DNA of 64,000 nucleotides, taken from a virus. Lineage: Duplodnaviria; Heunggongvirae; Uroviricota; Caudoviricetes. The position numbers and the translations under genes were made by a program. Below the pieces are notes generated by a model. It was not told the DNA's origin. It searched no databases and saw only the letters and a list, made by a program, of their open reading frames with translations. How positions within the stretch are numbered: position 1 is the stretch's first letter; every line of letters starts with the position of its first letter. Shown here in pieces: positions 1-61,489 of the stretch. The stretch lies in the IMG/VR virus record IMGVR_UViG_3300020050_006655. The stretch is one strand, 5' to 3'.

Positions 1-151
1 CAGAAACAGTGCCATTTATATTATAAATTCTTAGTGTGGTGTAGGAAGTAGTTAATAATCAATAAGTTAGGTGAAAATAGAACGTGTAATTTAATATTAC
101 ACAGTCTAATTCAACCTAATCAGTTAATAATCAATCAGATATAAAAGTACA

Positions 152-649
152 GTGAAAAAGACAGACAAAGAAATGCTGAATAACAGCAAAAGTCCATTCA
201 TACACTGGTTAGAAATACCAGTTAGAATGTTTAAGAAGAAGCATCAAATTGCATCTTCTACAGATAAGAATATAGTACACAGGTTTGAGGTAAATACAAC
301 TGTTCAATCCATAGTAATGGAACAGTTACCAATAACCAAAGTATTTACAACGTTTGAATACAGAGAGATGATAGCCATGTTGAGTAAGGACGCAAAGTGT
401 CTTATGCTATGGTTACTGTATGAAATAACGCCGGGTCAAGATTGGTTCCAGTTAAACCGTAAAAGATATGTTGATGAAACACGATTGTCTTATGTTGAAT
501 TAAGTCGTGCTGTTTTACATTTAACCAACGCTGGTGTAATTAGCCCAACGACCGTAAAGAATTGTTATTGGTTTAATCCAATGTTCTTCTTTGCTGGTGA
601 TAGGATAAGTAAATATCCTGATAACCTTGTTGGAGATAATCAGATATGA
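152..649 (+). CDS. hypothetical protein (165 aa)
   Basis: Long ORF on the coding strand of the region. No recognisable motif. Confidence 0.4.
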   Translation: MKKTDKEMLNNSKSPFIHWLEIPVRMFKKKHQIASSTDKNIVHRFEVNTTVQSIVMEQLPITKVFTTFEYREMIAMLSKDAKCLMLWLLYEITPGQDWFQLNRKRYVDETRLSYVELSRAVLHLTNAGVISPTTVKNCYWFNPMFFFAGDRISKYPDNLVGDNQI

Positions 650-746
650 TAGGAAAATTAGTGTAACTTTCATCATCAATCTTTTCTCTCTTTCCAAATC
701 ACAAATTTATCCTGCTAAATACAGGATTACTAAATAATAAAACAAC

Positions 747-920
747 ATGCCCAAGTCAACACATTTTCTTGCATCAGACGGTAATGAAATCTGGTTTGTT
801 ATTCCAATCGAACTAAAAGAACAATGGACTAATGAAACATTCATGTCACCAAAAGATTGGGAAAAATATATGCAATTCCAACAAGATATTGAACATCTTG
901 AAATCACCATTAACAAATAA
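747..920 (+). CDS. small hypothetical protein (57 aa, MPKSTHFLASDGNEIWFVIPIELKEQW...)
   Basis: Found by manual translation. It lies co-directionally in the gap between flanking + genes and is a better candidate than the antisense 707..988 ORF. Confidence 0.25.
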   Translation: MPKSTHFLASDGNEIWFVIPIELKEQWTNETFMSPKDWEKYMQFQQDIEHLEITINK

Positions 921-1017
921 CATATAGTTATTCTACCCATTTGTATAATGCAGAAGATATTTACATCACAGAATAACAATTCATACAAAATTATGGACTA
1001 TACAAAACTCAACAACA

Positions 1018-1236
1018 ATGAAAAAAATAAAAGTTTATTTCAGTCAATTATATGATGAACAACGTCAAAATGCTTTAATGCAAATGGTTGCGTTTGAAAA
1101 CGAAGGTAAGCAAAAAGAAGATATGATAGGTGTAATATACCTTGAATTTCGCTTTTCAGATGAAAATCCTGATGCTTATTACGAATTCTGGATCAATGAA
1201 AATGATACGGAAAACGTAGAAGTAAAAAAGAAATAA
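1018..1236 (+). CDS. small hypothetical protein (72 aa)
   Basis: ORF on the + strand with a clean start. Acidic and Glu-rich. Confidence 0.35.
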   Translation: MKKIKVYFSQLYDEQRQNALMQMVAFENEGKQKEDMIGVIYLEFRFSDENPDAYYEFWINENDTENVEVKKK

Positions 1237-1745
1237 GAAACTACTTCAACAAACCCAACCTAATAGAATCCCTCGAAAGATTCTTAGGTCTGGTAGTTCG
1301 GATGACAAACTCGTCTAAAGACGTAGGTTGGTGTTTGTTGATTTTAAGATATAGAGATACAGGTAGGTTGGTAATCAATCCAAATATCTGGAAGTAGGTG
1401 TGCAAATAATTCCTGTTATCTCTTAAATAATACACATGAAAATCGGCCATTGGCTCCCTTTATAATTGTACATGAGGGTATAAAGAAAACGCAGCAATTA
1501 AAGTAAAAAACTCAATCCCTTTTCAAGATATTGAGAACACCAGTTTCTTTGATAGATAAAACAGAAATCCAATGATATAATATTGCACTAATTTCATTTA
1601 GTGTTATCAATATTATATACAACGGTCATTGTATAATCTATCAAAGTTTTAGGTGTAAAATACGGTTCTATTAAATTCTTACCTGAAAGAATTTGCTCGT
1701 ATGTTTATCGAGAACTATAAACAATAATATTCATAACTATACACA

Positions 1746-2126
1746 ATGAATATCGAACAAACAAAAATCGTTCTTGTGCCTGAAACAGGTTACAAGCGTA
1801 CCATCACACTCAAACTTATCAAAGCGGAAATGTGTGAGGGTAAATGGATGATTAGACACAAAGGATTTGTATCCCACATTGTTAAACATAAACAAGCACG
1901 TTTTGCAATTATCATCACGGATGTAAACGGCTTGCCAGCCAGAGAAATAAAATACCAATTTCACATACACGAATCTCGTGGTGAGATACTGAAAGATTAC
2001 AATGATGTTGTCGCTTATTATAAAGCAATGGCATTTAAAGAACAAAATCCGGGACCAAAACCTTTAAATGGAGTAGAATACAACGGTCTAAAATACGAAT
2101 GGCCAACTCATCCTTGGGATAAATAA
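1746..2126 (+). CDS. hypothetical protein (126 aa)
   Basis: ORF. The next gene starts 8 nt downstream, which suggests an operon. Confidence 0.45.
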   Translation: MNIEQTKIVLVPETGYKRTITLKLIKAEMCEGKWMIRHKGFVSHIVKHKQARFAIIITDVNGLPAREIKYQFHIHESRGEILKDYNDVVAYYKAMAFKEQNPGPKPLNGVEYNGLKYEWPTHPWDK

Positions 2127-2134
2127 GCAATACT

Positions 2135-2419
2135 ATGCACAAAATAACATTCAATGTATCTGGCACAAATACTGCTGCTTTTTTAGAGGTTCTTCTCAAA
2201 GGACATCCGGCAGTTAGTAATGTTACAACAGAAGAAATGACAGGTACTCCATTTAGTACTCAATTGATTAATATTGTTGATCGTAACTTTCGTTTTTCGG
2301 CTGGTTACTTTGCCGAATGGCTTCGAGTAAATAATATAAAATCAATCGAAGAAGCAATTGAAAAAACTAGAATTGTTGGTATGGCTGAATTTCTTCAAAA
2401 GGCTTTAAAATATACTTAA
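2135..2419 (+). CDS. hypothetical protein (94 aa)
   Basis: ORF tightly packed after 1746..2126. Confidence 0.45.
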   Translation: MHKITFNVSGTNTAAFLEVLLKGHPAVSNVTTEEMTGTPFSTQLINIVDRNFRFSAGYFAEWLRVNNIKSIEEAIEKTRIVGMAEFLQKALKYT

Positions 2420-2883
2420 ATAATAATACAATAGGATCTACGACTATTGTATTTGCATCCTTTTTTTGCATCCTTAGTAGATATAGATTTTCCATAGATC
2501 ACAGTGGAAAACAGAAACATGGTGATTATCCCAAGCAGTGAACCTGCTGACAAAGTTCAAACCTTTTGCTCGTAAGTGTTAGTAATAACACCAGAGCATC
2601 AAAGGTGTCTCTGTTGTCGGGACATAAACTGCTTGGGTATTTTTTAAATCTTTTAAAATCACAAATATGCACTTTTGTATTTTTAAATCAGGACAATTCA
2701 ACGGGATATTCTTAATTCTAAATACAAAGAGTATTCAATTCACTATTGTAAGATATAAACTCAAAATCAGATTATACGATAAACCCAATACCAATATTCT
2801 AATAGATAGAGGTTATAAGTGGGTTGTTGGTATTACACCTAATTTTATAGGTATTGCTTTTTAAATCTTTTAAATAAAATAAT

Positions 2884-3237
2884 ATGACTACCTATCAAGA
2901 AAACAATGTCGAAACATCTGCTGGTAGATGTACAATTTTATTCAGATGTTACTGGTGTACCAAGTCCTTGAATTTCTTAGCACAGGTATTCTGCACCTCG
3001 AAGGCAGATATACCAGATATTTGGTCATTCAGTAAAACTGGCAGCAACATCACAGCAGAGCATCCACAGGGTGTTCAATATGCCTGGAAAAAACTGTTGA
3101 AAGAAACGGAAAACACCAAAAACACAATTGGCTTTGCCAATGAAATGAACAATGGACATCCAATGTGTACCTATGCAAAATCTTGGTTTGACAATGTATA
3201 TGGTGTGGACAATAGAGAAAACAAGGTACTCGCTTAG
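2884..3237 (+). CDS. hypothetical protein (117 aa)
   Basis: ORF with no known motif. Confidence 0.35.
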   Translation: MTTYQENNVETSAGRCTILFRCYWCTKSLNFLAQVFCTSKADIPDIWSFSKTGSNITAEHPQGVQYAWKKLLKETENTKNTIGFANEMNNGHPMCTYAKSWFDNVYGVDNRENKVLA

Positions 3238-47158: not shown

Positions 47159-47818
47159 ATGATAAAGATCAATGTAACTAAGGACTTTCGTTGTTTTAAA
47201 CAAGGAGAATCTTTTGACTTTTCACACCTATTTGAATTAAAACATATACTTTTAGTTGGAGAAAACGGTTCGGGAAAATCTACATTATTTCAATCTGTCA
47301 GAGGAAAATATGAGAAGCCTATTTACTCTACATCTATGATTTTAAGTTCTATAAAACAAAATGTCAGTCCTCACTTTTTAGTGGAATCTGATTATGAAGT
47401 GGTTTATGGATTTGACGCTCGTGTTGAAGGTGGTTCTTCTTTAGAAAATTCTTTTGACGCAAGTGCTTATGTTGAAAGCGGTGCTTTTACTGCCGATAAA
47501 CTATCACACGGCCAATCTGAAATATACTTAATAAATAAATTTGTTAAGCGTATAGAGTCGCAAATAATTAAAGATAGAACATTAATTTTACTAGATGAAT
47601 TCGATAAAGGTTTTTCCTTATCTAATCAAATAAAATCAATCAATATTATTAAGTATTTGGTTTCTAAAGGTTGTCATGTTTTATCTATTTCACATAATAT
47701 TTTTTTAATAAAAAGTAGTATGATAGTATATGATATGGTATCAAAAAAAGAAATGCTTGCAAGAACGTATATTGATAGTCAAATAAACAAAAATAGCCCG
47801 TCCCTACCATTACGGTAA
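47159..47818 (+). CDS. small ABC-type ATPase (219 aa)
   Basis: Walker A LVGENGSGKSTLF. ABC signature-like LSHGQSE. Walker B ILLDEFDKGFS. Confidence 0.55.
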   Translation: MIKINVTKDFRCFKQGESFDFSHLFELKHILLVGENGSGKSTLFQSVRGKYEKPIYSTSMILSSIKQNVSPHFLVESDYEVVYGFDARVEGGSSLENSFDASAYVESGAFTADKLSHGQSEIYLINKFVKRIESQIIKDRTLILLDEFDKGFSLSNQIKSINIIKYLVSKGCHVLSISHNIFLIKSSMIVYDMVSKKEMLARTYIDSQINKNSPSLPLR

Positions 47819-47841: not shown

Positions 47842-48111
47842 ATGAAAACGTTAATATTTTGTTGTTTTATATTTCTATCGTGTGTTGACAGAAAATATAA
47901 ACAGTATGACTTTTTCTATTATTCTAAAAGAATATTCCTATTACAAGATTCTTTGATAAACTTAGGTGTATCCAATGCTTATCACAATAAAGTAAACGGT
48001 ATAATATTCACATGTAAGTGTTCACCAGCATTCATACAAAAATATGAAACAGGATCTACGCTTGTTGCTGTAATCCCTAAAGGAACAGGAAAAATAGAAA
48101 CGTTTAGGTAA
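47842..48111 (+). CDS. small putative lipoprotein (89 aa)
   Basis: Signal peptide with lipobox-like FLSC. Confidence 0.35.
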   Translation: MKTLIFCCFIFLSCVDRKYKQYDFFYYSKRIFLLQDSLINLGVSNAYHNKVNGIIFTCKCSPAFIQKYETGSTLVAVIPKGTGKIETFR

Positions 48112-48133
48112 GTCTTCGGGCTTACCTTTTTTT
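48107..48133. terminator. bidirectional rho-independent terminator at convergence of + and - gene blocks
   Basis: ggtaag(tc)-ttcg-(gg)cttacc hairpin with a UUCG tetraloop, followed by ttttttt. The + gene ends at 48111 and the - gene ends at 48141. Confidence 0.55.
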
Positions 48134-48140
48134 ACACCCT

Positions 48141-51100: not shown

Positions 51101-52142
51101 TGGTTATGATCTCCTGTTTGATCTTTTCAAGATCTGCTATTTGCTGATTTACATACTGACGTTTGGACACATCCTTATTACGGGCAAGTCTTTCTATACG
51201 TGCATCAATCTTACCCAAGAAATCATCAAGTGATTCAAAACCTGTTTTCTCTGTAAAAGGAATAATCTCATCAATTAACTTATCTTGTCCCGGCCCTGCA
51301 ACATACTGAATCTTGTTATCAAATGTTTTGGTTCTACTATTAAAAGCAGAAAACAATTTAATCGGAATAAGCCTATTACTATAAACACCTTTAAAACCAT
51401 ATCTCTTTCTAAGAATACTAGCATACATACTTATTTGAGTCTTATATTTCTCAAGTGACTTATAGTGTATCAATGTTACATCAGGTTTCAAATCACCAAC
51501 AGCATCCAACGATTCTCTTTTAGAAGATATGGTCTTGTAATCTCGGATAACAAACGTATTGTCTGAAAGAATAGCAAGGAAGTCTATTGTACCACCGATA
51601 TTATCAACAGGATCAATAACCAGATGTTCCAACTTAACAACAGGTAATTCATTCACACCTGTCTTTTGGTTAATTGCTTGTTGTGCTTGATAAACAAATA
51701 CAAATTGGTTTCTAATTATATCAAACAGGTTGTCTCTGGATTTTTGATCCAAAGTCTTACCTGTTTTTTTTAAACCCTTTTGACGTATTGAGGTAAGTAT
51801 TCTCAATGATTCGGTAACACTTTTACCAGATAATTCATCAAGAATCTGTTGACCATATTCTTCCAGTACATCATGTACATAATTACCTGTTTCAGCAGCA
51901 CCCTCACCTCTTTCAGATTCAAATGTTTTATTCCCTTGAATCTTAGTTGTTACTGTTGTTTTAAGTTTGATGTCTGGATTATCAACCAGAACATACTTAC
52001 CATTATCTTTAACAAACTGAACATTGTCAGAATCCAAGTATTCCAAGGATTCTGACCTGTTCATATTTTGTCTAACCACATGAAAAGCCTTGTGATTATC
52101 TATTGCTGTTTTAATATCTGATTGTGTAGGACTACACCTCAT
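48141..52142 (-). CDS. giant hypothetical protein (1333 aa), probable virion/cargo-type protein
   Basis: Uninterrupted 4 kb ORF. Its start overlaps the stop of the upstream 3116-aa gene. No motif recognised. Confidence 0.6.
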   Translation of the reverse strand: MRCSPTQSDIKTAIDNHKAFHVVRQNMNRSESLEYLDSDNVQFVKDNGKYVLVDNPDIKLKTTVTTKIQGNKTFESERGEGAAETGNYVHDVLEEYGQQILDELSGKSVTESLRILTSIRQKGLKKTGKTLDQKSRDNLFDIIRNQFVFVYQAQQAINQKTGVNELPVVKLEHLVIDPVDNIGGTIDFLAILSDNTFVIRDYKTISSKRESLDAVGDLKPDVTLIHYKSLEKYKTQISMYASILRKRYGFKGVYSNRLIPIKLFSAFNSRTKTFDNKIQYVAGPGQDKLIDEIIPFTEKTGFESLDDFLGKIDARIERLARNKDVSKRQYVNQQIADLEKIKQEIITKKSVNAIQEFVIHINKQLENMDDLSIDDLGNIYNELNLFKTLNDATFEYRKFLNDQGIDTSAIEQQTIIINTLINDTLARVKQEWFNHRLARVVAEETGEKIVDEAGNIIPFSPEGYFAAWFYQLSQFNNPIFQTLRAKLDKAHFEKNKKIDELTEQVVKTENDVIRYLKQKGMTWQDFIKLIINREDNLIEKTDKKWLKEVSDGTGEDYPNQFNVVEYYDWKERRNVYEKKLDSLYPSDPARVQRELEKWDGRNSLELKTNGKAMFPLAWKNARANGKLTFKEDVIVYSAEFEKIRQVPEFLNYYNLLESKNREFRKMLGVEYKQLPNNFIPNIRKSASERIDEWGMKGVSSSVDDFIKDFSVREDDRSSDDSYLKRDSIPKFFLNPFRDKDGNIINGEKSYQLGRSLLLFAKMAYNYDEMTKIEGEVLGLRELLVEKGLELQQSDRGLKTNLLGNNFTQKLSETDIVKTFDRFVQMYVYGLSVEPVIGDKSGKTEKMLLQMKNYFTIKKLGFNILSATGGFIAAKIQSVITGKTGIYYDEQQYSESIKASYKSRKEFLALSAYFDPMGHRYGAVRLEESTVGETQLGDSSQRGFINKYVNSRLLMKPYSIGDEYIEEVVTYALSQNYYVTPDGLLKKVQFPEDKEKYKGRFIKDLFKYEDGKATLNIPEDQQKQIWIAFRRAVQVVQSGIKGTIPEEDKAVWQGQLVGTLVGNFKSWMPGVMTERFGKVKYDKRVDTVYMGRFTAIMQEFGTQKINSQNENLQLGLFVRDIVLPKLGQLAMQVASFHTIGGYFKGFKMKDDGTARLMYENWLARNPQYDGKVSYKEFRSVQEKQLKASIIELRIILGFLLLATLAMGDWDDDGEKDYKKYFLTKKLVSVILKVKQEISFFVNPTEFINLTKNPIPMIGLLQDAVKTINNMFDELYDVSQGNITLGEKTLITGEKDSDDRKNIGSYTHAWIPGFGGLFQFFNVMSDDVQYLGQQN

Positions 52143-55100
52143 AATTTACATTGAATTTGTACCTGACCATTTTCGATCAGTTGTGCATAGGCTGTTTTAT
52201 CTTCTTCCGATAAATGCAAGTAATCATCAAAATACCTGTCCCAATTGTTCACAACATCTTGACCCATTTGACCAAGACTTGTTTCCATTTGTTTCTGGTT
52301 ATATTCTGCAACTACCCTATTATCTTGTTGTTGCTTACTGATAGTATCAACATCATTGGATATTCTTAAATACCATTTATCGTTTGGTGCTTTATAAAGA
52401 TTAAGTGATTTACCAAATTCACGATTAACCTTTGCTATGTCTTTCAATAGACTTGGCCAATCAGCATTCTTGTTTATCTCTTTCGATCCTTTATATTTCA
52501 CACCATACTTATTGAGTATCTTTTGATATTCTTTTTCAAGACTTGTTTCACGTTGCAATGATTCAAACAAATCAATACCTAAAGATTCTTCACGTTCTAT
52601 CTGATTTAATAGATTTTCTGCATGGAACATTACTTCTTCAAACAATGTATTCTGTTTGGGAGTAAACTGAAACAGTTTAGAAAACCATTCGATCAATTTG
52701 GTCATTACATTGGAACCTTGATATGGAATCTGTTGTAGGGCCAACATAAAATTACGTCTCGTAAATATACCAGTGATAAACTCATCTAAATCTTCAAGAG
52801 GATAAATAGCCTTTGGATCAATACTCATTGCTTTACTCCTTGTATAAGCAAGTAACTTTTCGAGTTCTTGAACTTCTTTACTATTTGGATTATCTCGAAT
52901 ATACTGATGTGTTATGGCGTGAATTTGTTCATGTAATATTGTTCTACTTGGAAACATTACCTTAGGTGAAATCTTGATTTCTCTTGTTGAAGGAAAATAT
53001 GCGGCCAAAGATTCACCATAAATACGTCCAGTATCAGTACCCTTAACAGGATTAGGTAAAACATTCTCTGTAATCATAACAGGTACGTTAGATTTAAATC
53101 TAAGTAATCTGGTAGCAAGAGGACTAAGAACATCTGAACTATCTGCTATATGCTGAACATATTGTCTCGCATTAGTAAATCCAAGATTAAAAATTGGGTC
53201 TTCTGTTTGTGTTGTTTCTCCAGTATCGGGTAACGGCTTAGAATCAATTTTTTCAACTTCAAATCTTGTATTATGAACAACAAGTTTATTCTTACTTCTT
53301 GACATTGCAACATAAGCAAGTGCTTGTCTTTCCGTTGTTACTTGTACGTTATTTTGATCTACAATTGGAATATTTGTTGCAGGACTTAAAGAATCAGCAT
53401 TGAAATAAACATTTTCGATTGTTGCACCTTGAGACTTGTGTATTGTTATAGCATGACCATAATCAATATCTTTTTCAAACTTTAAAGAGCCAAGACCTTC
53501 CGTTTTTATGTTTTTATGTTTTACCGCATCAAATAATTCCATTTGATCTGTAGACGGATTAAAAACATAAGTGTTACCAACAGACACTTTTCTTAAAGCA
53601 GCACCGATACTTTGTAGTTCTTCAATATATACACCATAAGATATTGATTTATTCTGATAATTTTTATTAAGATTATGAATCTGTTTAAAGTATGAAGAAA
53701 CATCATTATTATTATTCGTAAAATCTTTTGACGTTAAATGGTTAAACGTTAAACTGTCATTCAGCGATAATTGAAAATAATTAGTGTAGCCTGTTGGTGG
53801 AATACCACCTATCCCCATTTCAGATAAACGATCTAACTTATCAGATTTTATAGTCAGTCCAACCGATGATCCTGTCTTGTCAAATTTTACAATCTTATAT
53901 TGTATTGAATTTGCAACATCTCCTTTTTCAATTTGTTTTGTACCATAACCCAAATAACCAATAACAATATCACCAATCTGTGTTTCTCCAACACGACCAA
54001 GAACCTCTCTTGCTTTTTGATTAATTGTTTGAACCTGTGAATTTGTATAAGAAATCTGAACAGTGTTTGTTGGATCAGCCTGTAAATCATTAACATACTG
54101 TTTGTTAAATTCTGCCAACGGTAAAAACTGAACAGAATCATTGTTTATTCTTGGCTGAAACAACTTAAACTCTGTTTGAATTCTCATTTTACTAAGCAAG
54201 TCAAGAAGAATGTTGTTTTTTTGACGAAAAACCTGATTCAAACTTAACTGTTTAAATCGTGTAAAAGCAGGTGATAAGTTTTTTACGGATGGATTTCCTG
54301 TCATAACTTGAGGAATCTGTTTGGAATCTCCCATAAAAATTAACTTAACTCCAGCGTTTTTAGATGCTTCAACAAGTAACCTTACATCCTTTTCACCAAG
54401 CATTGAGGACTCATCTACAACAACAACCGAATTATAACCTATGTATTTGGTAGCAGATGAAGTAAAGAAGCCTTCACGTTTATTTGTACCAAGAATTTCT
54501 TTTTCATATACTGATTTGGCAACAGTCAACGGAAGTTTATTATTACCCGTTTTTACAGTAGCAAAAGCAAGTTCGGCTACAGCAGCATGTGTTGGAGCCA
54601 TATACAAAAAAGATCTGTTTCCAAAATATTTTTGCAGATAACCTATAACAGATGTTTTACCTGTGCCAGCAGCACCCTGTAAAGTTATAGCAGGATCGTT
54701 AGATGATTCAACATAATCTATTAAATCTCTTAATGCTTTAGATTGATCTACACCTAATTCAAATTCAGTCTCTATTGTTTTTCCTTTATAAGAAAATACC
54801 AACTTACCCAAACGGTTAGATTGTGACTGACTCTGATTTTCATCAGATTGTTTATTAAGAGTTTTAGGTTGTTGAACAATTAAACCACTGACATGATACC
54901 TCTTAACATTCCTATCACCCAAAAGAGGGACAACTATTTCTTTCCCCTTTTCTTCTCCCTTTACAACATACACAATAGATTTCTGACCAGTCTGATAATC
55001 AGTTACATTTTTCTTTCTAACAACATTTGCGTTATATCTTGAAGCAAGAAAGTTGGGGTTGTTAAGATTGAAAAGCATTAAGAACTTATCAATCATCAAA

Positions 55101-58100
55101 TCTCTTTCTTGTTCGTTCAAACTCTCAAATTGCTCAAAAGAATCATTGATTATATCTTGGGCATAATACAAATGTTCATTGTCTTCTGTTCTTGTTGCAT
55201 CTTTACCTTGAGGTACAACATTGAAGAAGTTAAGGATACCTTGGTTTAAACCGTTCTGAAAGAATAACACATTGATAATATCTTTGTATAATTGACTATC
55301 TAATTCATGTAATTCTTCAAAAGCCTTAACCATATCATTAGATGAATAACCATCAAGTTTCTTTTCATAAAGACGAAGATTATCAACTCTGATTTTGGTC
55401 TTGTTCTTTTCACCAATTAAAGGTTGGAGTGCTTTTAAGAATGGATTGTTTGGAAGTTTTTCTTTAGCAACCCTAACTCTTTTAGCAACTGAGTTTTGTC
55501 CAATCATCAATTCCATAAAAGAATCTTTATTGAAGTTAAAGTTATGGACAAGATAAAGAATAAAATCATTATCGAATGTTGACATCAATCTATCTTTTGT
55601 AGCACCTTTCTGGCTCTTAGCCAAAGCAAGTTTGATATTACTTAATCTTTCAGAAAAAGGTTTACCTTCTGCAAAACCATAAAAAGGTTCATACAACTTT
55701 CTATATAATGTACGTCCGTATTTATAGAAAGGACTCAACAAACCTTGTTCATCATGGTAATTAACAACTTCTTCTGGTACAAGATTGGCAAGTGCTATTT
55801 GATCTCTCAACTGTCTATCCTTTAACCAGTCTTGACTATCGGCCCAACCAGCAGTATCAGAGTTTTGAGTCTTTAAAAAATCACCATAAACAATAGATAG
55901 GTTTTGAATCTCAAGAAAAGATTGAAGATAGTTGGCCTGTCTTGTTCTATAATCATCAGACGATTCAGGTTTAAGAAGATCGTTTGTTAATTGATTTTCT
56001 GTTATCTCAAAATCAGAAAGAGTCATAAAACCAACTTTTGCCTGATAATCAAGCATACTGGCTTTTCCAACCGTCTCTAATATTTTCTTGATAAACTCTT
56101 TTTTATCTGTTTCTTCTCTTGTAAGAACTATTGTTTTATACTTCGGTTGTCCATTTTTATCAAGTACTGGTTTTTTATCTTTATCATATACCGGAATATC
56201 TTTCTCATAAGTATCATTCTTCAAATACATAGATTCATTAACCTTTTGCATTGTCAGATACTTTTTAATAATCGGTTGAGATAAAAACTTGGTTATTTCT
56301 GCTGCTGATACATTATTCTTAATCAGATAATCTACAACATTTGCTGTTTGAAGTGTAATGTTCATAAGAACAGCATAAGGTTCTTTAACACCATCCACGT
56401 ACATGGTAAGCAATTGTGACATTACTTCTGACAAAGTATTAAACTGATTATCTGTATAACTTGAAAAATCATATTGACTGGCAGACCCAAATCTAACAGC
56501 AGATGGAAGGAATACAGGATTACCTTCTTTATCTTGACCAACATAGTATTCAGAATTGATGCTATTACCAGCAACAGAATTAACTTGGTTAACAGCAGCA
56601 AAAGTAATACTCAACGCTCCAATACCAACAGCGAATTTACCTTGAACAAATATAACTGCTTTCTTGGCATTTGTAATTGGATTAAGAATCGTAAAGAAAT
56701 TATCATTCTCACCCTCAATCAAACCTGATTTAACAAAGAATCTTTTGTAAAGTGTTTCTACAAAAATATCATTTGTTAAAGGCATCAACAAATGTTGGAC
56801 GTTATTTGGATGAAGAAGAATTTCTTTTTCAATAGATAATAACTGATTATCCAAATTAACTGTTGTAACCTTTTCAGGACTAAAAATTCTATTTTGTATA
56901 TCACTTGTCCAATAGATATTTATTTTGTCGATGTCAAAATCTGACCCAACTTTAATAACTATCTCTGATGGTACAATAGCATAAGCCTGAACAGTAGGAA
57001 GTGTAAACTTCTTAACCCTAAACATATCATTGGATGACAATTGCTGGTTAGGAATCCTAAGACCTTTCACAATAAACAAATCACCATCGGATTTCTTATC
57101 TTCTGCTACTTTATTGTTTAACCATTCAAGGGCTTCAATCAAGTTATTTGTTCCGGCAGCCTTATACAAAGAAGGAATCCATTTACTCGGAAGTGGTATA
57201 ATAACTTCTGCTGGCTTAACCTTAAGCAAATTTCCATCATTGTCAAATACAGGTTCATAGAAATCTAATTCCTGACTCTGATAAGTTCCATCTTCCAATC
57301 TAATCCTTGAACCATAAGGCTCATAACCAGTTGATGCTGCTTGAGGATATGAATTACCAGCACGATCAAAATCAATAACATTACTTGTTACAAGAGCATG
57401 AAGAACATTCTCAATCTTTTGTCTAAGACTAAGTGTTTCTATATTCTTGGGATCATTCAAGAAGTTCTCTACAAGGTTCTTTAGATTATCAGCAGCATTT
57501 GCTACTTGGCTTGAGTTAAGAACCACTTCTTTTAATTTCTCATAAGAAGTAAAATCACCATCCCAACCAAGTTCGGTCAAGAAAGAATCTTGATTTGCTT
57601 TTACCATTTGATCTATGATCTCCAAATATCGCTTAACAATATCCATTGCTCCCGGAAACCTTTCTTGTCCATTAACTATTAGATTGGATAACAAGATTTT
57701 TAAAGACTGTGTGGAACCAGATATTTCTGATTTTTCTTTATTACCAATCTTAACCTGATCTTTGTAGTATTCCCAATCAAATAGATAATTGGCAAACCCT
57801 GTTTCTGGATTAGATGCTAAGAGAAAAGCGTCTTGATTAAATGCTCCATTCTCATCATAAAAGGTAAGACCTTTATCAGCAATTTTACCGACAATCGGAT
57901 TATCTTTTCTTGTATCATTTTCATCTTGTTGAACTTGTTTAGCAGCAATCTTTGGATCAACAGCACCTACTTTATTAGCAGAACCCATATGGGCTACTTG
58001 GACACCAGATACAAGCATTGAATGGTTCATTGCTTGTAAGTTGGTTCCCATAATAGCAGATGGTTGAAGCAAGTGATTAGAAGTCTTAAATACGGTAAAG

Positions 58101-61100
58101 AAACTGTATTCTAATTCTTCTCGTCCTTTAGCAAATGCTTCTTGAACTGATGGGCCAGCATATTGCACTTTAAGTGTGTGCATTGCCTCTAACTTGTAAG
58201 GAACACCATTTTCATCTTTTCCTTTATTAAATGCTCCTTCAAACGGTTTAATTATAAGACCGTTGTACTTATTCTTACCTTTAATCGTAACAACTAAATC
58301 TTTTGCTTCTGACAGACTCCTATATTTAAGAAGTTCCATTTCAACTTGATAAGCAACATCCATTTCATCTGTCCAGTTACCAAGTCTTATTTGATAGTTC
58401 TTAAATGCTGGAAGTGTCATATAAGACAGCCCATCATTTTCATTAACTTCTGAATACTTCTTTTCTGCCTGTTCGATCTTAGAAATCATTTTAGATTTTT
58501 CAGATTCTGTGGGATTGGGTATATCCTGTAAGAATCCCCATTCCATAGCAGAAGCAATTTTAGTTGGATTCTCTATACCAAGTTTAGACTGGACTCCAGA
58601 TGGAACGAGCAACCTTGATTTATAATCATCTTGTTCTTTGATCGTAACACCTCTAACTTTTGTATCGTTTAGATTATCCGACGCATTGATTGTAACAGTT
58701 TTACCTGTTGCAATGTCAAACACTTCATAAGACTGATTCAACTCTTGTCTGATAACACTATTTGTCAGATCATCTGTTGCGGTTAAAAGACCATTAGAAG
58801 ATTGTGTTGCAAGACGTTTGTATAAGTCATTGGCATTCTTAAACATTCTATTATCTCCCGTAAACAATCTACTTTCATTCATGTGGAACAAATGCTCATT
58901 CACATAAGAATAAAGAAGTGTCAACTCAATAGCAGAATTTTTAAACCCTTTGGTTTCACCAGTAAAAGGTAATGTTCTTTTATTAAATTCAGCAATAGTA
59001 GATGGATTGATACCAGCAATATGTACACCCGGAACATACAATTCATTCTCCTTAATAGTGTCCATAAACTTCTTGAAATCATCCTCAACCATTTTATATA
59101 GTTGAGTTTTATCAGATTCATTTATTTCCTTACCGTTAAGAATTTCCGTAAGTCTTGTTTCGGATAGGAGTTTTGAATAACCTGTTTTAAGACCATCTTT
59201 ATTACCAATATACTGCATTGGGAGATTACTATATTCCGATCTTGCAAATTCAACTTCCTTCTGAATCTCTTTAACAAGCCCTTCAACAATAATATTGATA
59301 CCCGGTGTTTTAATATCAGAACTGTTACCAAACATATCTGTTATATTAACAAGAGGATCTGTCTTATATGCAAAGAAGGTACTTCTATCAGAGTGTTTCA
59401 TTGACATGAAATTACCAGTCATGGCACCATTTATATGGAGTGCTATTAGATCGGGTTCAGACATTTTATCAACATACATCTCATCTTCTTGACTATTCTT
59501 TGCTGCATAAGGAATAGTAATGTCAAAGTTGTTGTCATAAATAGCAGCAAGCAATGGCTGTAATCTCCAATTACCAAGTTCGTCTTTGGACATGTTCCAG
59601 TTATTGAACATCTCTGGCATCTCTTTTCTAAGACGATTTAATATATCTTGTGTAGATTGTGATTCTTTCTTAAACCTGTTTACAAGATACTTGGCTTTGT
59701 TGACCATGATTGTCTGTTGTGTATTCAAACCAAGAGCATATATCTTGGTATCAAGTACTGTAATCATGGTATCAACAGATTCTTCATACTTTGCTTGTAT
59801 CTTGGCAATCTTATTTATCTGACCACCAATATCAAACTTGGCATATATAGAACGACCATTCTCTTTATACTTTGGTTTACCAAGAATTGCTGTTGCAGCA
59901 GCACGAAGATGTGGATAAGACTTATCAATAGTTCTTTCGTCAAGAACAATCCCAAACACATCAGCCATTTGTCTAGCAACTGTCTTAACATCACGACTTG
60001 TGATCTTGTTAAGATTATCCCTAAAGTATTTTAGATATTGTACCTGCTGATCTTCTATAATAAAATCCGTTTTGGCTAAAAGATTACTGTTCCACTTTCT
60101 GATAAGATTGGCTTCTCTCGTTTCAGAGTTAAGATTACTGAATCTGATTTCAGTATTCTTTTTATCATCTTCACCATATTGAAAGAACGTAAAGTTATTC
60201 TCTGTTAAAGCCATCTTACTAACAAACTCGTTTCTAAGTTTGATTGTTTTGGTATTCCAGCCTTCTGGTGTTTTACCTAGTTTTGTAAGTAGATCTTCAA
60301 CAAATGGTAGATCAAGTTTTTCCAGTTCTTCCAAAAAGTATTTAGTTGGGATACCAGCCATACCCAAAGCAATTTGGTTATATGCCGTACTTGCAGAAAC
60401 TGTTACAGGAACACCAACAGATGTTTTATTAACTGGATGTTGAAAAGATGCAAGCAACAATTTAACTCTTGTACTCAAACCATCTTTAGGATTGACTTTA
60501 ATAGCAGATACAAACTCTCTTGTAGCAGATGTTTCCCCAAGAACAGATTCTGTTTCTACATCTTCTGCTGTCTGATCTTCTTTTACAATCTTTCTTTTCT
60601 TTTGTACAATCTCCAAACCATAGTATTCAAGTTTAGAAATTATCTCTTGCCAGACAATACCATCTGAATCCAGATTGTCACCAATATCATTTAATAGATC
60701 AGTATCAACATACTGTTCCAGTTGACCATGAGCATCCCATTTTAAATCTTCAAGAACATCTGTATAACCCTCAAGATCTTTATTAACCAAACGACCAATA
60801 ATTCTTGCCGATAAAAAGTTTACAATATCGTTCTTATCAGTAACAGATATTTCTCTATTTGATTCACCTATAACAATACTATCAGCATCTTTAGAATAAG
60901 GAATCCTTGGTGATCCTGTAAACTCTTTAGATAGAATCCTATCATAAATTGTTTTTATATCGTCTAATTTAAGACCAAGTACTTTCTTGATAAAGTTTAA
61001 CAGTCTTTCAAATAGCGATTTGTTAGGTTGAACTTTATATGAATCTGGTTGTAACTGATAAGTTTCAAATTCATCAGCAAAAAATTCTTCAATCAGATCT

Positions 61101-61489
61101 TCATCTGTAAGATTAGGATAATTGATTTTATAATTCTCAATTGTTGATTTCCAATCAGGTTTATATTTAAACTGTCTAATAGCATCTGCGCGTTCAGCAG
61201 GAGTTAAAAACATTCTCCATACTCTATGGAATGCTTCATGTCTTGCTGTTCTTATATCTGCTTTCTCTGATAAAAGAATTTTACCATCCGCTTTAAATCG
61301 ACCAAAAGATTTATTATCTATCAGTCCAGCAACAATAATAACTTCTTCTCTTGACATACCAAGATACTCTTGTAAGAATCTGATATTAGATTCTTGATCT
61401 TGGTTTGGCATTTCTTCTACCAACAATCGTTTGATCCTATCTGTTGAAAACTGTTTTCCTTTATAGGTGTAGGTACAATTTATTTGCAT
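52139..61489 (-). CDS. giant multidomain protein (3116 aa) with HExxH zincin-like motifs, Asp-rich DFDID loop and SF1 Pif1/RecD-like helicase core
   Basis: HEAFH near N-terminus (~nt 61227-61245). VGSDFDIDK (~nt 56925-56945). SF1 helicase motifs GAAGTGKTS (~54650-54680), VVVDESSML (~54395-54425), GDSKQIPQV (~54306-54335) and IHKSQGAT (~53430-53450). Second HExxH LHEQIHAITH (~52900-52940). Confidence 0.65.
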   Translation of the reverse strand: MQINCTYTYKGKQFSTDRIKRLLVEEMPNQDQESNIRFLQEYLGMSREEVIIVAGLIDNKSFGRFKADGKILLSEKADIRTARHEAFHRVWRMFLTPAERADAIRQFKYKPDWKSTIENYKINYPNLTDEDLIEEFFADEFETYQLQPDSYKVQPNKSLFERLLNFIKKVLGLKLDDIKTIYDRILSKEFTGSPRIPYSKDADSIVIGESNREISVTDKNDIVNFLSARIIGRLVNKDLEGYTDVLEDLKWDAHGQLEQYVDTDLLNDIGDNLDSDGIVWQEIISKLEYYGLEIVQKKRKIVKEDQTAEDVETESVLGETSATREFVSAIKVNPKDGLSTRVKLLLASFQHPVNKTSVGVPVTVSASTAYNQIALGMAGIPTKYFLEELEKLDLPFVEDLLTKLGKTPEGWNTKTIKLRNEFVSKMALTENNFTFFQYGEDDKKNTEIRFSNLNSETREANLIRKWNSNLLAKTDFIIEDQQVQYLKYFRDNLNKITSRDVKTVARQMADVFGIVLDERTIDKSYPHLRAAATAILGKPKYKENGRSIYAKFDIGGQINKIAKIQAKYEESVDTMITVLDTKIYALGLNTQQTIMVNKAKYLVNRFKKESQSTQDILNRLRKEMPEMFNNWNMSKDELGNWRLQPLLAAIYDNNFDITIPYAAKNSQEDEMYVDKMSEPDLIALHINGAMTGNFMSMKHSDRSTFFAYKTDPLVNITDMFGNSSDIKTPGINIIVEGLVKEIQKEVEFARSEYSNLPMQYIGNKDGLKTGYSKLLSETRLTEILNGKEINESDKTQLYKMVEDDFKKFMDTIKENELYVPGVHIAGINPSTIAEFNKRTLPFTGETKGFKNSAIELTLLYSYVNEHLFHMNESRLFTGDNRMFKNANDLYKRLATQSSNGLLTATDDLTNSVIRQELNQSYEVFDIATGKTVTINASDNLNDTKVRGVTIKEQDDYKSRLLVPSGVQSKLGIENPTKIASAMEWGFLQDIPNPTESEKSKMISKIEQAEKKYSEVNENDGLSYMTLPAFKNYQIRLGNWTDEMDVAYQVEMELLKYRSLSEAKDLVVTIKGKNKYNGLIIKPFEGAFNKGKDENGVPYKLEAMHTLKVQYAGPSVQEAFAKGREELEYSFFTVFKTSNHLLQPSAIMGTNLQAMNHSMLVSGVQVAHMGSANKVGAVDPKIAAKQVQQDENDTRKDNPIVGKIADKGLTFYDENGAFNQDAFLLASNPETGFANYLFDWEYYKDQVKIGNKEKSEISGSTQSLKILLSNLIVNGQERFPGAMDIVKRYLEIIDQMVKANQDSFLTELGWDGDFTSYEKLKEVVLNSSQVANAADNLKNLVENFLNDPKNIETLSLRQKIENVLHALVTSNVIDFDRAGNSYPQAASTGYEPYGSRIRLEDGTYQSQELDFYEPVFDNDGNLLKVKPAEVIIPLPSKWIPSLYKAAGTNNLIEALEWLNNKVAEDKKSDGDLFIVKGLRIPNQQLSSNDMFRVKKFTLPTVQAYAIVPSEIVIKVGSDFDIDKINIYWTSDIQNRIFSPEKVTTVNLDNQLLSIEKEILLHPNNVQHLLMPLTNDIFVETLYKRFFVKSGLIEGENDNFFTILNPITNAKKAVIFVQGKFAVGIGALSITFAAVNQVNSVAGNSINSEYYVGQDKEGNPVFLPSAVRFGSASQYDFSSYTDNQFNTLSEVMSQLLTMYVDGVKEPYAVLMNITLQTANVVDYLIKNNVSAAEITKFLSQPIIKKYLTMQKVNESMYLKNDTYEKDIPVYDKDKKPVLDKNGQPKYKTIVLTREETDKKEFIKKILETVGKASMLDYQAKVGFMTLSDFEITENQLTNDLLKPESSDDYRTRQANYLQSFLEIQNLSIVYGDFLKTQNSDTAGWADSQDWLKDRQLRDQIALANLVPEEVVNYHDEQGLLSPFYKYGRTLYRKLYEPFYGFAEGKPFSERLSNIKLALAKSQKGATKDRLMSTFDNDFILYLVHNFNFNKDSFMELMIGQNSVAKRVRVAKEKLPNNPFLKALQPLIGEKNKTKIRVDNLRLYEKKLDGYSSNDMVKAFEELHELDSQLYKDIINVLFFQNGLNQGILNFFNVVPQGKDATRTEDNEHLYYAQDIINDSFEQFESLNEQERDLMIDKFLMLFNLNNPNFLASRYNANVVRKKNVTDYQTGQKSIVYVVKGEEKGKEIVVPLLGDRNVKRYHVSGLIVQQPKTLNKQSDENQSQSQSNRLGKLVFSYKGKTIETEFELGVDQSKALRDLIDYVESSNDPAITLQGAAGTGKTSVIGYLQKYFGNRSFLYMAPTHAAVAELAFATVKTGNNKLPLTVAKSVYEKEILGTNKREGFFTSSATKYIGYNSVVVVDESSMLGEKDVRLLVEASKNAGVKLIFMGDSKQIPQVMTGNPSVKNLSPAFTRFKQLSLNQVFRQKNNILLDLLSKMRIQTEFKLFQPRINNDSVQFLPLAEFNKQYVNDLQADPTNTVQISYTNSQVQTINQKAREVLGRVGETQIGDIVIGYLGYGTKQIEKGDVANSIQYKIVKFDKTGSSVGLTIKSDKLDRLSEMGIGGIPPTGYTNYFQLSLNDSLTFNHLTSKDFTNNNNDVSSYFKQIHNLNKNYQNKSISYGVYIEELQSIGAALRKVSVGNTYVFNPSTDQMELFDAVKHKNIKTEGLGSLKFEKDIDYGHAITIHKSQGATIENVYFNADSLSPATNIPIVDQNNVQVTTERQALAYVAMSRSKNKLVVHNTRFEVEKIDSKPLPDTGETTQTEDPIFNLGFTNARQYVQHIADSSDVLSPLATRLLRFKSNVPVMITENVLPNPVKGTDTGRIYGESLAAYFPSTREIKISPKVMFPSRTILHEQIHAITHQYIRDNPNSKEVQELEKLLAYTRSKAMSIDPKAIYPLEDLDEFITGIFTRRNFMLALQQIPYQGSNVMTKLIEWFSKLFQFTPKQNTLFEEVMFHAENLLNQIEREESLGIDLFESLQRETSLEKEYQKILNKYGVKYKGSKEINKNADWPSLLKDIAKVNREFGKSLNLYKAPNDKWYLRISNDVDTISKQQQDNRVVAEYNQKQMETSLGQMGQDVVNNWDRYFDDYLHLSEEDKTAYAQLIENGQVQIQCKL

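Follow-up and report, generated by a model that had tools for sequence, protein, structure and literature searches.

A crAss-like phage virion RNA polymerase homolog with an embedded SF1B helicase and zincin-like domains at both ends

The closest described relatives of the protein considered here are virion cargo proteins of crAss-like phages. Homologs of this cargo were detected in phi14:2 virions by mass spectrometry (bioRxiv 10.1101/2020.03.07.982082; Drobysheva et al., Nature 2021). Alanine substitutions in the catalytic motif of phi14:2 gp66, 1361-DFDID-1365, abolish its activity, and the purified enzyme transcribes single-stranded DNA but hardly double-stranded DNA, with no recognisable early promoter (bioRxiv 10.1101/2020.03.07.982082). 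In PhiCrAss001, gp47, gp50, and gp49 were all found in virions by the same technique (PMC10172136). A further point of reference is gp50 of phage N4, a giant, virion-delivered RNA polymerase (vRNAP) which, according to Iyer et al. (2017, PMC5512222), is always fused to a lethal-factor-like zincin; N4-type vRNAPs also bear further enzymatic domains, ART among them, that vary from one to another.

Within the 64,000-nucleotide stretch of viral DNA analysed (the window), an unbroken reading frame with an ATG start and no internal stop encodes such a protein (Table 1). The first-pass annotation had described a 3116-residue giant with SF1 helicase motifs deep inside it and an HExxH motif near either terminus; the frame is indeed intact, and each motif lies where it was placed. 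Two HExxH motifs are seen against 0.027 expected by chance from the protein's own composition, and an alignment of 25 sequences shows no variation at H84, E85, H88, E134, D1517, D1519, or D1521. Judged from the sequence, the listed motifs are not chance matches. The unusual length of the gene, and the frequent splitting of its relatives (17 of 58 homologs end inside DFDID), could point to an assembly chimera or read-through that joined a helicase from another gene to the polymerase. Such an artefact is extremely improbable. A near-identical 3116-residue protein (P0001) was called on an independent JGI metagenome contig; coding composition and strand skew are even along the whole gene; its start and stop codons overlap the adjoining genes, at the junctions ATGCAAATAA and ATGA; and the order of RNAP core, helicase, and conserved C-terminal tail recurs in P0019, P0147, P0154, P0166, and the P0005-P0017 group.

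Table 1. Coordinates of the giant gene, its predicted domains and motifs, and the adjoining cargo genes (window positions)
Feature	Residues	Nucleotides	Strand	Basis
Whole gene, predicted virion RNA polymerase (gp66/gp50 family) plus accessory domains	1-3116	52139..61489	-	Intact ORF, 3116 aa
N-terminal zincin-like domain	1-200	60890..61489	-	HEAFH, aa 84-88 = nt 61226-61240
RNA polymerase body	223-2181	54947..60823	-	Colinear with phi14:2 gp66 aa 110-2053
Predicted catalytic Mg-binding motif DFDID	1517-1521	56927..56941	-	Aligned to gp66 D1361/D1363/D1365
Predicted inserted SF1B helicase module	2211-2752	53234..54859	-	Pfam, PHROG, PDB matches; motif positions
Helicase motifs	I 2272, Ia 2297, II 2356, III 2387, IV 2420, V 2682, VI 2727			GAAGTGKT (Walker A) aa 2272, nt 54676; VVVDESSM aa 2356; GDSKQIPQV aa 2387; HKSQG aa 2684, nt 53440
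C-terminal gp65-type zincin-like domain plus conserved tail	2753-3116	52142..53233	-	HEQIH, aa 2853-2857 = nt 52919-52933
Cys5	5	61475..61477	-	Invariant C5
Cys3114, third residue from C-terminus	3114	52148..52150	-	Invariant C3114
Upstream cargo gene (gp67/gp47-like)		61480..>64000	-	Cut by window end; synteny with phi14:2 g067
Downstream cargo gene (gp65/gp49-like)	1333 aa	48141..52142	-	hhalign, Pfam, PHROG
PD-(D/E)XK nuclease domain, N-terminal in downstream cargo protein	80-295	51258-51905	-	Pfam PDDEXK_1 5.1e-07, PHROG exonuclease

The largest part of the giant protein is its polymerase body. A family profile (A1) matches the gp66 structure, PDB 6VR4_A, over nearly its full length, gp66 aa 124-2067, in three colinear stretches (E=2.2e-52), BLASTP connects the giant directly to gp66 (E=4.5e-10), and hmmalign places the connector, the bridge helix, and the trigger loop of gp66 on the giant's sequence. 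The acidic residues of DFDID correspond residue for residue to those of gp66 and do not vary across the family alignment; the flanks GSDFDIDK and RIPNQ..SSND are common to both proteins. The motif had been thought loosely RNAP-like: the likeness stands, but "loosely" does not, as this is the exact gp66 family motif. A tblastn search with the giant returned matches in Crassvirales only. As shown by homology, the protein is the predicted counterpart of phi14:2 gp66 and PhiCrAss001 gp50, a DNA-dependent RNA polymerase of the two-barrel type that a divergent crAss-like phage (order Crassvirales) packages in its virion; a double-psi β-barrel fold is likewise expected from homology to the solved structure.

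Zincin-like domains sit at either end of this body, as had been suspected from the HExxH motifs. The N-terminal one is a conserved, anthrax-lethal-factor/PPEP/ArdC-like zincin with E134/E135 as candidates for the third ligand. Its HEAFH motif is kept in 55 of 58 homologs, always ~1430 residues upstream of D[FY]D[IV]D. A Foldseek search of the PDB with this domain yielded no significant hit; a zincin domain of the same type was found structurally in gp14 of phage cr118_1. By profile comparison, the C-terminal HEQIH domain has a homolog within phi14:2 gp65, the zincin-like domain at aa 180-334 (HEIMH245; hhalign probability 96.9%, E=1.6e-10). The H, E, and H of the HEQIH domain and a downstream E-F are invariant in 11 homologs; its AF2 model is poor (pLDDT 54).

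The surroundings of the gene match this assignment. Both giant neighbors reported earlier are real, each overlapping the gene by a few bases. The upstream one, which runs off the window, is 55% identical to a 1474-residue protein of the closest relative, L005, and the downstream one resembles crAss001 gp49 (hhalign probability 90%, E=1.4e-6). The gene order is that of phi14:2 g067-g066-g065, at the border of an opposite-strand replication block, and the contigs of two relatives encode a muzzle protein (Pfam crAss_MUZ) upstream. The giant is in the usual cargo block of muzzle, two smaller cargo proteins, gp67-like protein, RNAP, and gp65/gp49-like protein; the earlier suggestion of a crAss-like virion-RNAP/cargo module is borne out by gp66 homology and cargo-gene synteny alike.

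The giant protein contains only two cysteines, Cys5 and Cys3114. A cysteine falls within the last 12 residues of 127 of the 137 family representatives. The upstream cargo protein has a single cysteine, third from its C-terminus (...KTCK), and the downstream one a single cysteine at position 3. This pattern suggests a disulfide-linked cargo chain, in which the two terminal cysteines would most likely link the giant to both neighbors in the virion. The single terminal cysteines of the neighboring proteins disappear where the genes are fused.

Between the polymerase body and the C-terminal domain lies a predicted complete SF1B (Dda/RecD/Pif1) module with all seven motifs intact. The region aligns with SF1 profiles, namely Pfam AAA_30 (5.5e-21, 75.6 bits against a cut-off of 27) and PHROG 325, Dda-like helicase (E=1.2e-56), and matches Pif1 chains and 9kwf in the PDB; Pfam PIF1 (25.1 vs 25.9 bits) and UvrD_C_2 (19.9 vs 27.4) fall just under their cut-offs. 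Polar low-complexity linkers border it at residues ~2205-2231 and ~2747-2770. It is a clean 542-residue indel relative to L005, which is 71-78% identical and is without exactly that segment, and the window contains no other SF1 helicase. The first-pass annotation considered a helicase in this position unusual. Uncommon it is, being carried by 16 of 137 full-length family representatives (~12%), but it is not unique, given these and RefSeq cr118_1 gp14. Because the closest relatives and ~88% of the representatives do without it, the helicase is not essential for vRNAP transcription. Where present (19 of 198 family proteins), it is always C-terminal to DxDxD and belongs to one of at least two types; in L010, this same helicase type has a gene to itself, located precisely between those for the RNAP and the gp65-like protein.

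What else occupies this position bears on the function of the module. The same C-terminal slot in homologs holds NADAR, ART-PolyVal, cpYpsA/SLOG, His_Phos_1, AlkB-like, or extra zincin domains. The first five look like host-directed or counter-defence effectors, a reading that fits the helicase too, and their interchangeability is the logic of polyvalent proteins co-delivered with DNA. A polyvalent protein had been posed as the alternative to a cargo/vRNAP module; both are supported, and the either/or falls away since the two are compatible. The helicase could then be an exchangeable cargo effector, unrelated to transcription, that protects or prepares phage DNA after injection by stripping restriction/CRISPR proteins, by initiating replication in the manner of T4 Dda, or by working jointly with the adjacent PD-(D/E)XK nuclease on host or phage DNA ends. 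This reading, which we regard as unlikely but worth weighing, draws on the variable slot, on the relatives that lack a helicase, and on the nuclease in the neighboring cargo protein. Moreover, identity to P0166 is 52.6% in the helicase and 27% in the RNAP core, a discordance suggesting that the module evolves or moves independently; among cultured crAss-like phages, the helicase's closest stand-alone relative is found in the replication block, beside UDG and PolB; and N4-type vRNAPs repeat the pattern of a zincin plus variable effectors (PMC5512222). Set against it, at least two SF1B types occupy one and the same site, immediately C-terminal to the RNAP core, and helicases often stand alongside NADAR rather than in its stead. 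Fusion in cis to a polymerase that needs a single-stranded template is also the more specific fit.

That fusion underlies our preferred reading, held with somewhat better than even confidence: a crAss-like virion RNAP with added zincins and a cis-acting helicase. A gp66-like body would have gained the N-terminal zincin, the C-terminal zincin-like domain, and, between body and tail, the helicase. Copies of the giant would be packed in the capsid, travel down the tail in a partly unfolded state, either together with the DNA or before it, and, once ejected, transcribe early genes with no need of the host polymerase. Somewhat more tentatively, and a little short of an even chance, the helicase would act in cis on the phage DNA as it enters, opening the duplex for the RNAP. 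SF1B enzymes move 5'→3', and this polarity was assigned to the module by family membership. Translocation 5'→3' on the non-template strand would run in the same direction as an RNAP reading the template 3'→5', and this shared direction would enable the helicase to open the duplex and clear bound proteins for the polymerase.

The zincin domains would most likely process or activate cargo, which raises the question of whether the giant is itself a substrate. The 3116-residue product might be a polyprotein precursor, cut by its zincin(s), inside the capsid or once ejected, at the linkers on either side of the helicase, such that RNAP, helicase, and C-terminal domain become separate proteins. Two conserved HExxH...E domains, polar low-complexity linkers on both sides of the helicase, the existence of the parts as separate entities elsewhere (the zincin in phi14:2 gp65, the helicase gene in L010), and the HEAFH at the end of crAss001 gp47 all agree with such processing, and Drobysheva et al. 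suggested that fused forms are cleaved, with activation by proteolysis (bioRxiv 10.1101/2020.03.07.982082). Yet no cleavage sites or processed products are known, and the N4 vRNAP retains its zincin and is packaged unprocessed (PMC5512222). We consider a precursor rather improbable; it would in any case be compatible with the preferred cis-acting reading, not exclusive of it.

Among known systems, phi14:2 gp66 (PDB 6VR4) shares with the giant a colinear body, an identical GSDFDIDK segment, the same gene order where the replication block begins or ends, and a complement of only two cysteines, both terminal (C3 and C2179 of 2180 in gp66). The two are only 18.7% identical over aligned columns, however, and the giant is 936 residues longer; gp66 is without HExxH, helicase, or C-terminal zincin domain, the last of which is held by gp65. 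PhiCrAss001 gp50 carries DFDVD, gp49 is homologous to the window's downstream protein, and the terminal cysteines are like those of the giant's block (gp47 C2339/2341; gp50 C5 and C2404/2412; gp49 C5). PhiCrAss001 differs in having gp47 on the opposite strand and no helicase, and its HEAFH motif is at the gp47 C-terminus, not the RNAP N-terminus.

A single polypeptide with an RNAP-homologous region and a C-terminal SF1 helicase recurs in cr118_1 gp14 (YP_010110531.1, 4946 aa, Suoliviridae), annotated 'exonuclease V' / 'DNA helicase', with which the giant 'DNA helicase' of cr50_1 is grouped. In cr118_1 gp14, residues 4439-4909 match AAA_30 (1.7e-25) and UvrD_C_2 (4.6e-11), and the RNAP region is ~25% identical to the giant. 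A literature search brought up no published study of this fusion. Fusion to the upstream cargo protein makes cr118_1 gp14 much longer, and, unlike in the giant, its helicase occupies the very C-terminal end, with no gp65-type zincin tail; cr118_1 is absent among the tblastn matches listed for the window's helicase-containing C-terminal part. The likeness to the N4 vRNAP is one of convergent architecture, not polymerase homology, the N4 enzyme being T7-like and single-subunit versus the two-barrel enzyme here. The Pfam domain ART-PolyVal does occur in the giant family's C-terminal slot, and no helicase fused to an N4-type vRNAP appears in the available text of PMC5512222. Finally, T4 Dda, RecD/RecD2, and Pif1 have all the conserved SF1B motifs in common with the giant's module, but they are stand-alone proteins or subunits of ~440-750 residues, whereas this one is embedded 2200 residues into a polymerase.

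The 3116-residue giant protein lies among three minus-strand ORFs whose junctions overlap: the stop codon of the upstream ORF shares bases with the giant's start (ATGCAAATAA), as does the giant's own stop with the start of the 1333-residue downstream ORF (ATGA), an arrangement resembling a translationally coupled operon. Many short and medium ORFs occupy the plus strand as far as nt 47818; the coding strand then switches at ~47.9 kb, where the GC skew also flips. The plus-strand genes make up a replication block that encodes DNA polymerases, primase, DnaB-like and further helicases, and RNA ligase. A megablast search of window nt 40000-64000 against 50,697 phage records returned no nucleotide-level relatives, and relatives were reached by protein searches only. 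At that level, phage matches to residues 1-2233 of the giant came exclusively from crAss-like phages, with a common segment at residues ~1235-1770 around the DFDID motif, and a near-identical homologue is present on JGI metagenome contig 3300020046|Ga0206646_1000044. In L005, the closest relative contig, and in a second relative, L008, a match to Pfam crAss_MUZ (the crassvirus muzzle protein) lies upstream of the giant gene. Gene order in both is muzzle, two smaller proteins, a ~1400-residue protein, the giant, a ~1333-residue protein and an opposite-strand block, which is the phi14:2 order g067-g066-g065. Together, the exclusively crAss-like matches, the muzzle protein and the gene order identify the window as part of a divergent Crassvirales genome, in which synteny places the giant gene within a cargo/transcription block that adjoins the structural genes and has the replication block facing it. 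Neither BLASTP nor phmmer matched the neighbouring ORFs significantly to phi14:2 gp65 and gp67; by hhalign, the downstream protein aligns weakly to gp65 (E = 0.045) and significantly to crAss001 gp49. The first-pass annotation had listed two HExxH motifs, a mid-protein DFDID loop and, further on, SF1 helicase motifs, all of which recur at the positions it gave in one uninterrupted ORF, the last aligning to the SF1 profiles AAA_30, AAA_19 and PHROG 325; its comparison of the giant and its two large neighbours with crAss-like cargo modules is likewise upheld by the synteny and the gp49 homology. A GC-rich hairpin, GGTAAG-CCCGAAGA-CTTACC, just past the stop of the 1333-residue ORF, lies behind the final gene of the cargo block at the meeting point of the two convergent gene blocks, and may be a terminator.

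The identity of the protein follows from its central region. A family profile built from 25 full-length homologues (A1) matched chain A of PDB 6VR4, the phi14:2 virion RNA polymerase gp66, with E = 2.2e-52 in three colinear stretches (profile 223-2125 versus chain 124-2067), and had no meaningful match in the rest of the PDB. The profile was required for this match, as a single-sequence phmmer search of the whole giant against the PDB retrieved helicases only. Direct BLASTP comparison with gp66 gave E = 4.5e-10. Overall identity between the two proteins, aligned through the profile, is a mere 18.7%, in line with the fast evolution known for crAss-like RNAPs (PMC7886860). When both proteins are aligned to the A1 profile, D1517, D1519 and D1521 of the giant's DFDID motif (residues 1517-1521) fall on D1361, D1363 and D1365 of gp66. 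The flanking GSDFDIDK and RIPNQ..SSND are identical between the two proteins, and the three aspartates are invariant among the 25 homologues. Elsewhere, hmmalign carries the gp66 connector onto giant residues 1213-1381, the bridge helix onto 1603-1633 and the trigger loop onto 1685-1723. Gp66, a virion-packaged RNA polymerase of 2180 residues, has the catalytic motif 1361-DFDID-1365 (Drobysheva et al., bioRxiv 10.1101/2020.03.07.982082). Each of its aspartates is essential, and the fourth position is Ile or Val in all crAss-like RNAPs (bioRxiv 10.1101/2020.03.07.982082), a rule that the giant's DFDID obeys. The invariant aspartates, the 6VR4 profile match and the residue-level alignment with gp66 rule out a chance resemblance of the motif. 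Judged by this homology, the giant is a crAss-like virion RNA polymerase of the phi14:2 gp66/crAss001 gp50 family, a known kind as far as annotation goes, and a two double-psi beta-barrel architecture can be inferred for its RNAP region from the solved structure. The presence of homologues in virions has been demonstrated for phi14:2 and crAss001 (bioRxiv 10.1101/2020.03.07.982082; PMC10172136).

The catalytic motif also coincides with a site of gene interruption. Of 58 homologues, 17 have an ORF that ends within it, after ...VGSD. The corresponding gap in L005 (14567-15528) holds a LAGLIDADG_2 endonuclease ORF with an Rfam group I intron match below threshold on either side (E = 1e-6 and 1.7e-4). 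The ORF after the gap picks up at (M)YDIDK; in cr108_1, the corresponding split-site positions are 13425/13716. Interrupted ORFs, endonuclease and intron matches together point to a homing intron that interrupts the DFDID codons in many relatives. At the equivalent site, the window's giant gene is intron-free.

C-terminal to the polymerase body lies the helicase, which scores 75.6 bits against Pfam AAA_30 (cut-off 27) and 50.2 bits against AAA_19 (cut-off 25.1). Residues 2204-2743 match the Dda-like helicases of PHROG 325 with E = 1.2e-56, PIF1 (25.1, cut-off 25.9) and UvrD_C_2 (19.9, cut-off 27.4) fall just under their cut-offs, and in the PDB the region matches Pif1 helicases together with a RecD-like chain. 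The module is accordingly classed, from its profile matches and its seven motifs, as an SF1B helicase (Pif1/RecD/Dda) with intact catalytic residues, and ATP-dependent 5'→3' unwinding is assumed from family membership.

Features of the giant gene, its neighbours and the cysteines of related cargo proteins (nt positions refer to the window)
Feature	Position	Strand	Remark
Downstream ORF, 1333 aa	48141..52142	-	ORF listing
Giant, 3116 aa	52139..61489	-	ORF listing and translation; no interruption
Upstream ORF	61480..>64000	-	ORF listing; truncated by window edge
Hairpin	48100-48140	-	
PD-(D/E)XK nuclease domain of downstream protein	51258-51905	-	aa 80-295
N-terminal HEAFH domain	60890-61489		
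RNAP core	54890-58192		
DFDID codons (intron site in relatives)	56927-56941		intron-free
Variable slot equivalent	~52142-54950		
Helicase module	53234-54859		
Motif I GAAGTGKTS	aa 2272		intact
Motif Ia MAPTHAA	aa 2297		intact
Motif II VVVDESSM	aa 2356		intact
Motif III GDSKQIPQV	aa 2387		intact
Motif IV VFRQ	aa 2420		intact
Motif V TIHKSQG	aa 2682		intact
Motif VI VAMSRS	aa 2727		intact
Giant C5	61475-61477		
Giant C3114	52148-52150		
Upstream ORF, sole Cys	near 61486-61488		third from C-terminus
Downstream ORF, sole Cys	52134-52136		residue 3
phi14:2 (L004) cysteines			gp67 C1797 of 1797; gp66 C3 and C2179 of 2180; gp65 C3
crAss001 (L009) cysteines			gp47 C2339 of 2341; gp50 C5, C1334 and C2404 of 2412; gp49 C5

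The helicase is a discrete module. Polar linkers border it, and the L005 counterpart of the giant is without exactly residues 2211-2752, being 78% identical over residues 1-1517, 71% over 1518-2210 and 76% over 2753-3116. Since close relatives do without it, the helicase is accessory rather than required; no second SF1 helicase was found in the 64-kb window. The wider family comprises 787 representatives (50% identity level) matching the RNAP core, and 198 family proteins were taken into a helicase census by profile search, a phmmer pass having missed the second helicase type. An SF1 helicase is present in 19 of these 198 (16 of 137 full-length proteins), every time C-terminal to the catalytic motif, and at least two types occur. 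The window type shares 51-53% identity with the helicases of P0019 and P0166, two family proteins with RNAP cores that reach only 42% and 27% against that of the giant. In a comparison of module against core that took in P0166, P0154, P0147 and P0019, the values were 52.6% versus 27% for P0166 and 43% versus 27% for P0154, the helicase being far better conserved than its attached polymerase. Conversely, the 'GRGGTGKT' type of P0005-P0015 is ~30% identical to the window's helicase, though the attached RNAPs are closer (43%). This discordance would reflect either exchange of the module between phages or far faster evolution of the RNAP core. Relatives of the module at 39-56% identity are mostly proteins of 490-940 residues. 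One, P0077, combines a HEFAH-zincin with the helicase and is encoded exactly between a 4251-residue RNAP giant and a gp65-like gene; stand-alone versions that are more distant also exist, among them the product of a 482-aa gene beside UDG and PolB in Rudgehvirus jaberico.

Such fusions have been hiding in public records. RefSeq cr118_1 gp14 (4946 aa; NC_055872.1 16381-31221) carries an RNAP region and a helicase (AAA_30/UvrD_C_2) at its C-terminal end, under the annotation 'exonuclease V'; helicase-bearing vRNAPs are mis-annotated in RefSeq under that name or as 'DNA helicase'. Other RNAP-bearing giants occur in cr130_1, cr109_1, cr113_1, cr6_1 and cr60_1. Public names for these proteins, which also include 'DprA-like DNA recombination-mediator protein' and 'nuclear pore complex protein-like protein', come from accessory domains, not from the polymerase. 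A literature search of incomplete coverage found no published description of an RNAP-helicase fusion. The architecture of zincin, RNAP, SF1B helicase and gp65-type zincin is an uncharacterised variant, present mis-annotated in public records.

What might a helicase do in such a protein? Single-stranded or denatured DNA is a good template for gp66 and duplex DNA a poor one, and an early promoter motif is absent (bioRxiv 10.1101/2020.03.07.982082). Cargo passes constrictions of <50 Å in a partly unfolded state (PMC10172136). Building on the homology, intact catalytic motifs, modularity and synteny established by sequence comparison, a mechanism can be proposed in which the giant would be ejected along with the genome, would then refold and transcribe early genes, and would apply its helicase in cis to the incoming DNA. 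SF1B enzymes translocate 5'→3'. Such movement on the non-template strand would be co-directional with an RNAP reading the template 3'→5', so that a fused helicase could open the duplex or strip proteins where the RNAP needs a single strand. This role as an in-cis helper of transcription is put forward tentatively, its chances being a little short of even. The main rival arises from the company that the helicase keeps. Across the family, the slot behind the RNAP core, with or without a gp65-type tail, holds NADAR (alone or with helicase), ART-PolyVal, cpYpsA (SLOG), His_Phos_1, a 2OG-Fe(II) (AlkB-like) oxygenase or an extra HExxH domain, some of them alongside helicase (C-terminal tails of P0005, P0016, P0018, P0034, P0035, P0042, P0049, P0051 and P0056). 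The helicase could be another host-directed or DNA-protecting effector of this variable slot, a reading that sits well with such neighbours and is considered somewhat unlikely. The fusion bears on how an enzyme nearly inactive on duplex in vitro, and lacking a recognisable early promoter, starts on the entering genome.

The two HExxH motifs are far in excess of the 0.027 expected from the composition of the giant. At the N-terminus (residues 1-200), HEAFH is present in 55 of 58 homologues, always ~1430 residues ahead of the catalytic motif, and H84, E85, H88, E134, E135 and A138 are invariant. At the C-terminus (residues 2753-3116), H2853, E2854 and H2857 are invariant along with a downstream Glu-Phe. 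Conserved candidates for the third ligand are thus at hand in both domains: E134/E135 in the former, and the Glu-Phe 46 residues past H2857 in the latter. The AF2 model of the N-terminal domain (pLDDT 86.7) had no significant Foldseek match in the PDB; its profile aligned weakly with PPEP-1/Zmp1 (E = 0.16), pairing the HExxH and an EE(F)xA(D/E)xF third-ligand helix. A BFVD search with this domain retrieves stretches of numerous crAss giant proteins (E down to 2e-6) and, more weakly, 'large polyvalent protein associated' proteins along with an M34 peptidase and a PolyVal ART protein. The AF2 model of the C-terminal domain is unreliable (pLDDT 54) and a PDB search with the profile of this domain gave no meaningful match, while hhalign matched it to phi14:2 gp65 residues 180-334, around HEIMH245, with a probability of 96.9% (E = 1.6e-10). 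The phi14:2 authors called this gp65 region zincin-like (bioRxiv 10.1101/2020.03.07.982082), and, on this alignment, the C-terminal domain is homologous to it. A search with 25 N-terminal domains gave no Pfam match to a curated peptidase family at a useful E-value. That the putative zincins release parts of the giant by proteolysis, a reading compatible with either a helper or an effector helicase, would suit the conserved putative ligands and is deemed rather unlikely.

The two domains do not respect gene boundaries. The gp65-type zincin begins the next protein in phi14:2, whereas it is part of the giant in the window; the HEAFH domain lies at the C-terminus of the preceding protein, gp47, in crAss001 (2157 of 2341; L009:10120-17145), whereas in the window's clade it forms the N-terminus of the RNAP. 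Domain order is therefore kept while the boundaries shift. The downstream gp65/gp49-like protein carries an N-terminal PD-(D/E)XK (RecB/Cas4-type) nuclease (Pfam 5.1e-07) where phi14:2 gp65 has its zincin-like domain; this nuclease is kept at 82% identity in the helicase-less L005. In the window, a virion-delivered nuclease would thus adjoin a virion-delivered SF1B helicase.

Those shifting boundaries are marked by cysteines. The 1.5% cysteine content of the window's plus-strand proteins predicts ~47 at the giant's length, and the giant has exactly two (P(≤2) = 4e-18), one at each end. Save at their extreme ends, the three RNAP-associated cargo proteins are nearly devoid of cysteine (0.07% versus 1.5% in replication genes). 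Gp67-like proteins have one at the C-terminal end, the RNAP one per end, and gp65/gp49-like proteins one at residue 3-5, a pattern found also in L005, L008 and cr108_1; the observation covers the window, L004, L005, L008, L009, L010 and L011. The 137 full-length representatives (mean 3074 aa) have a median of two cysteines, with one in the last 12 residues in 127 and in the first 8 in 87, as against 6 and 1, respectively, of 61 plus-strand ORFs of the window. In fusions of gp67-like protein and RNAP, the junction cysteines are usually lost, leaving a single C-terminal one (P0121, 4240 aa, C4239; P0153, 5096 aa, C5096). In L010, the product of the separate helicase gene carries a pair itself (C3 and C926 of 927); the RNAP before it ends in Cys, and the protein after it has C3. 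The cysteines appear to follow polypeptide ends, not domains. A 'cysteine switch' on the N-terminal zincin is unlikely as a general role of Cys5, because gp66 and crAss001 gp50 keep the N-terminal cysteine without HExxH. The pattern suggests, as its simplest reading, that head-to-tail disulfides would re-create a polyprotein inside the virion and be reduced in the cytoplasm. Many inter-subunit disulfides are known in the tail and portal vertex of crAss001 virions (crAss001 atlas); cargo cysteines are not mentioned in that atlas or the phi14:2 preprint. A fuller proposal, possible if rather less than probable, is that disulfides join the gp67-like C-terminus to the RNAP N-terminus and the RNAP C-terminus to the gp65-like N-terminus, so that the cargo would form a redox-cleavable 'polyprotein', threaded in order through the tail and freed by cytoplasmic reduction. 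The SF1B helicase, which is fused in the giant and forms a link of its own in other phages, would be a working part of this injected transcription machine, opening duplex for an RNAP needing a single-stranded template. Either way, the terminal cysteines bear on how several 150-350-kDa proteins are packaged, kept in order and driven through a channel of <50 Å.

Crassviruses are the most abundant human gut phages, and no closer relative of the eukaryotic RNAi polymerases is known than their injected two-barrel RNAP. As an annotation, the vRNAP of a crAss-like phage is ordinary; the interest of this gene is moderate, and higher for the helicase and cysteine questions that it raises. The first-pass annotation had wavered between crAss-like virion-RNAP cargo and a polyvalent protein. 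Both turn out to be right, and its overall finding and interpretation stand on the gp66 homology, the helicase profiles and the variable slot, whose organization is the polyvalent format. A zincin and lineage-variable, unrelated enzymatic domains share a large protein encoded with virion genes, which is polyvalent organization as defined by Iyer et al. (PMC5512222). Co-transfer of the giant into the recipient cell with the DNA would follow, we infer, from the virion proteomics of its homologues. The same work describes N4-type virion RNAPs as always fused to lethal-factor-like zincins, plus ART or lysozyme (Iyer et al., PMC5512222), and it is on the design of these N4-type polyvalent proteins that the crAss two-barrel vRNAP has converged.
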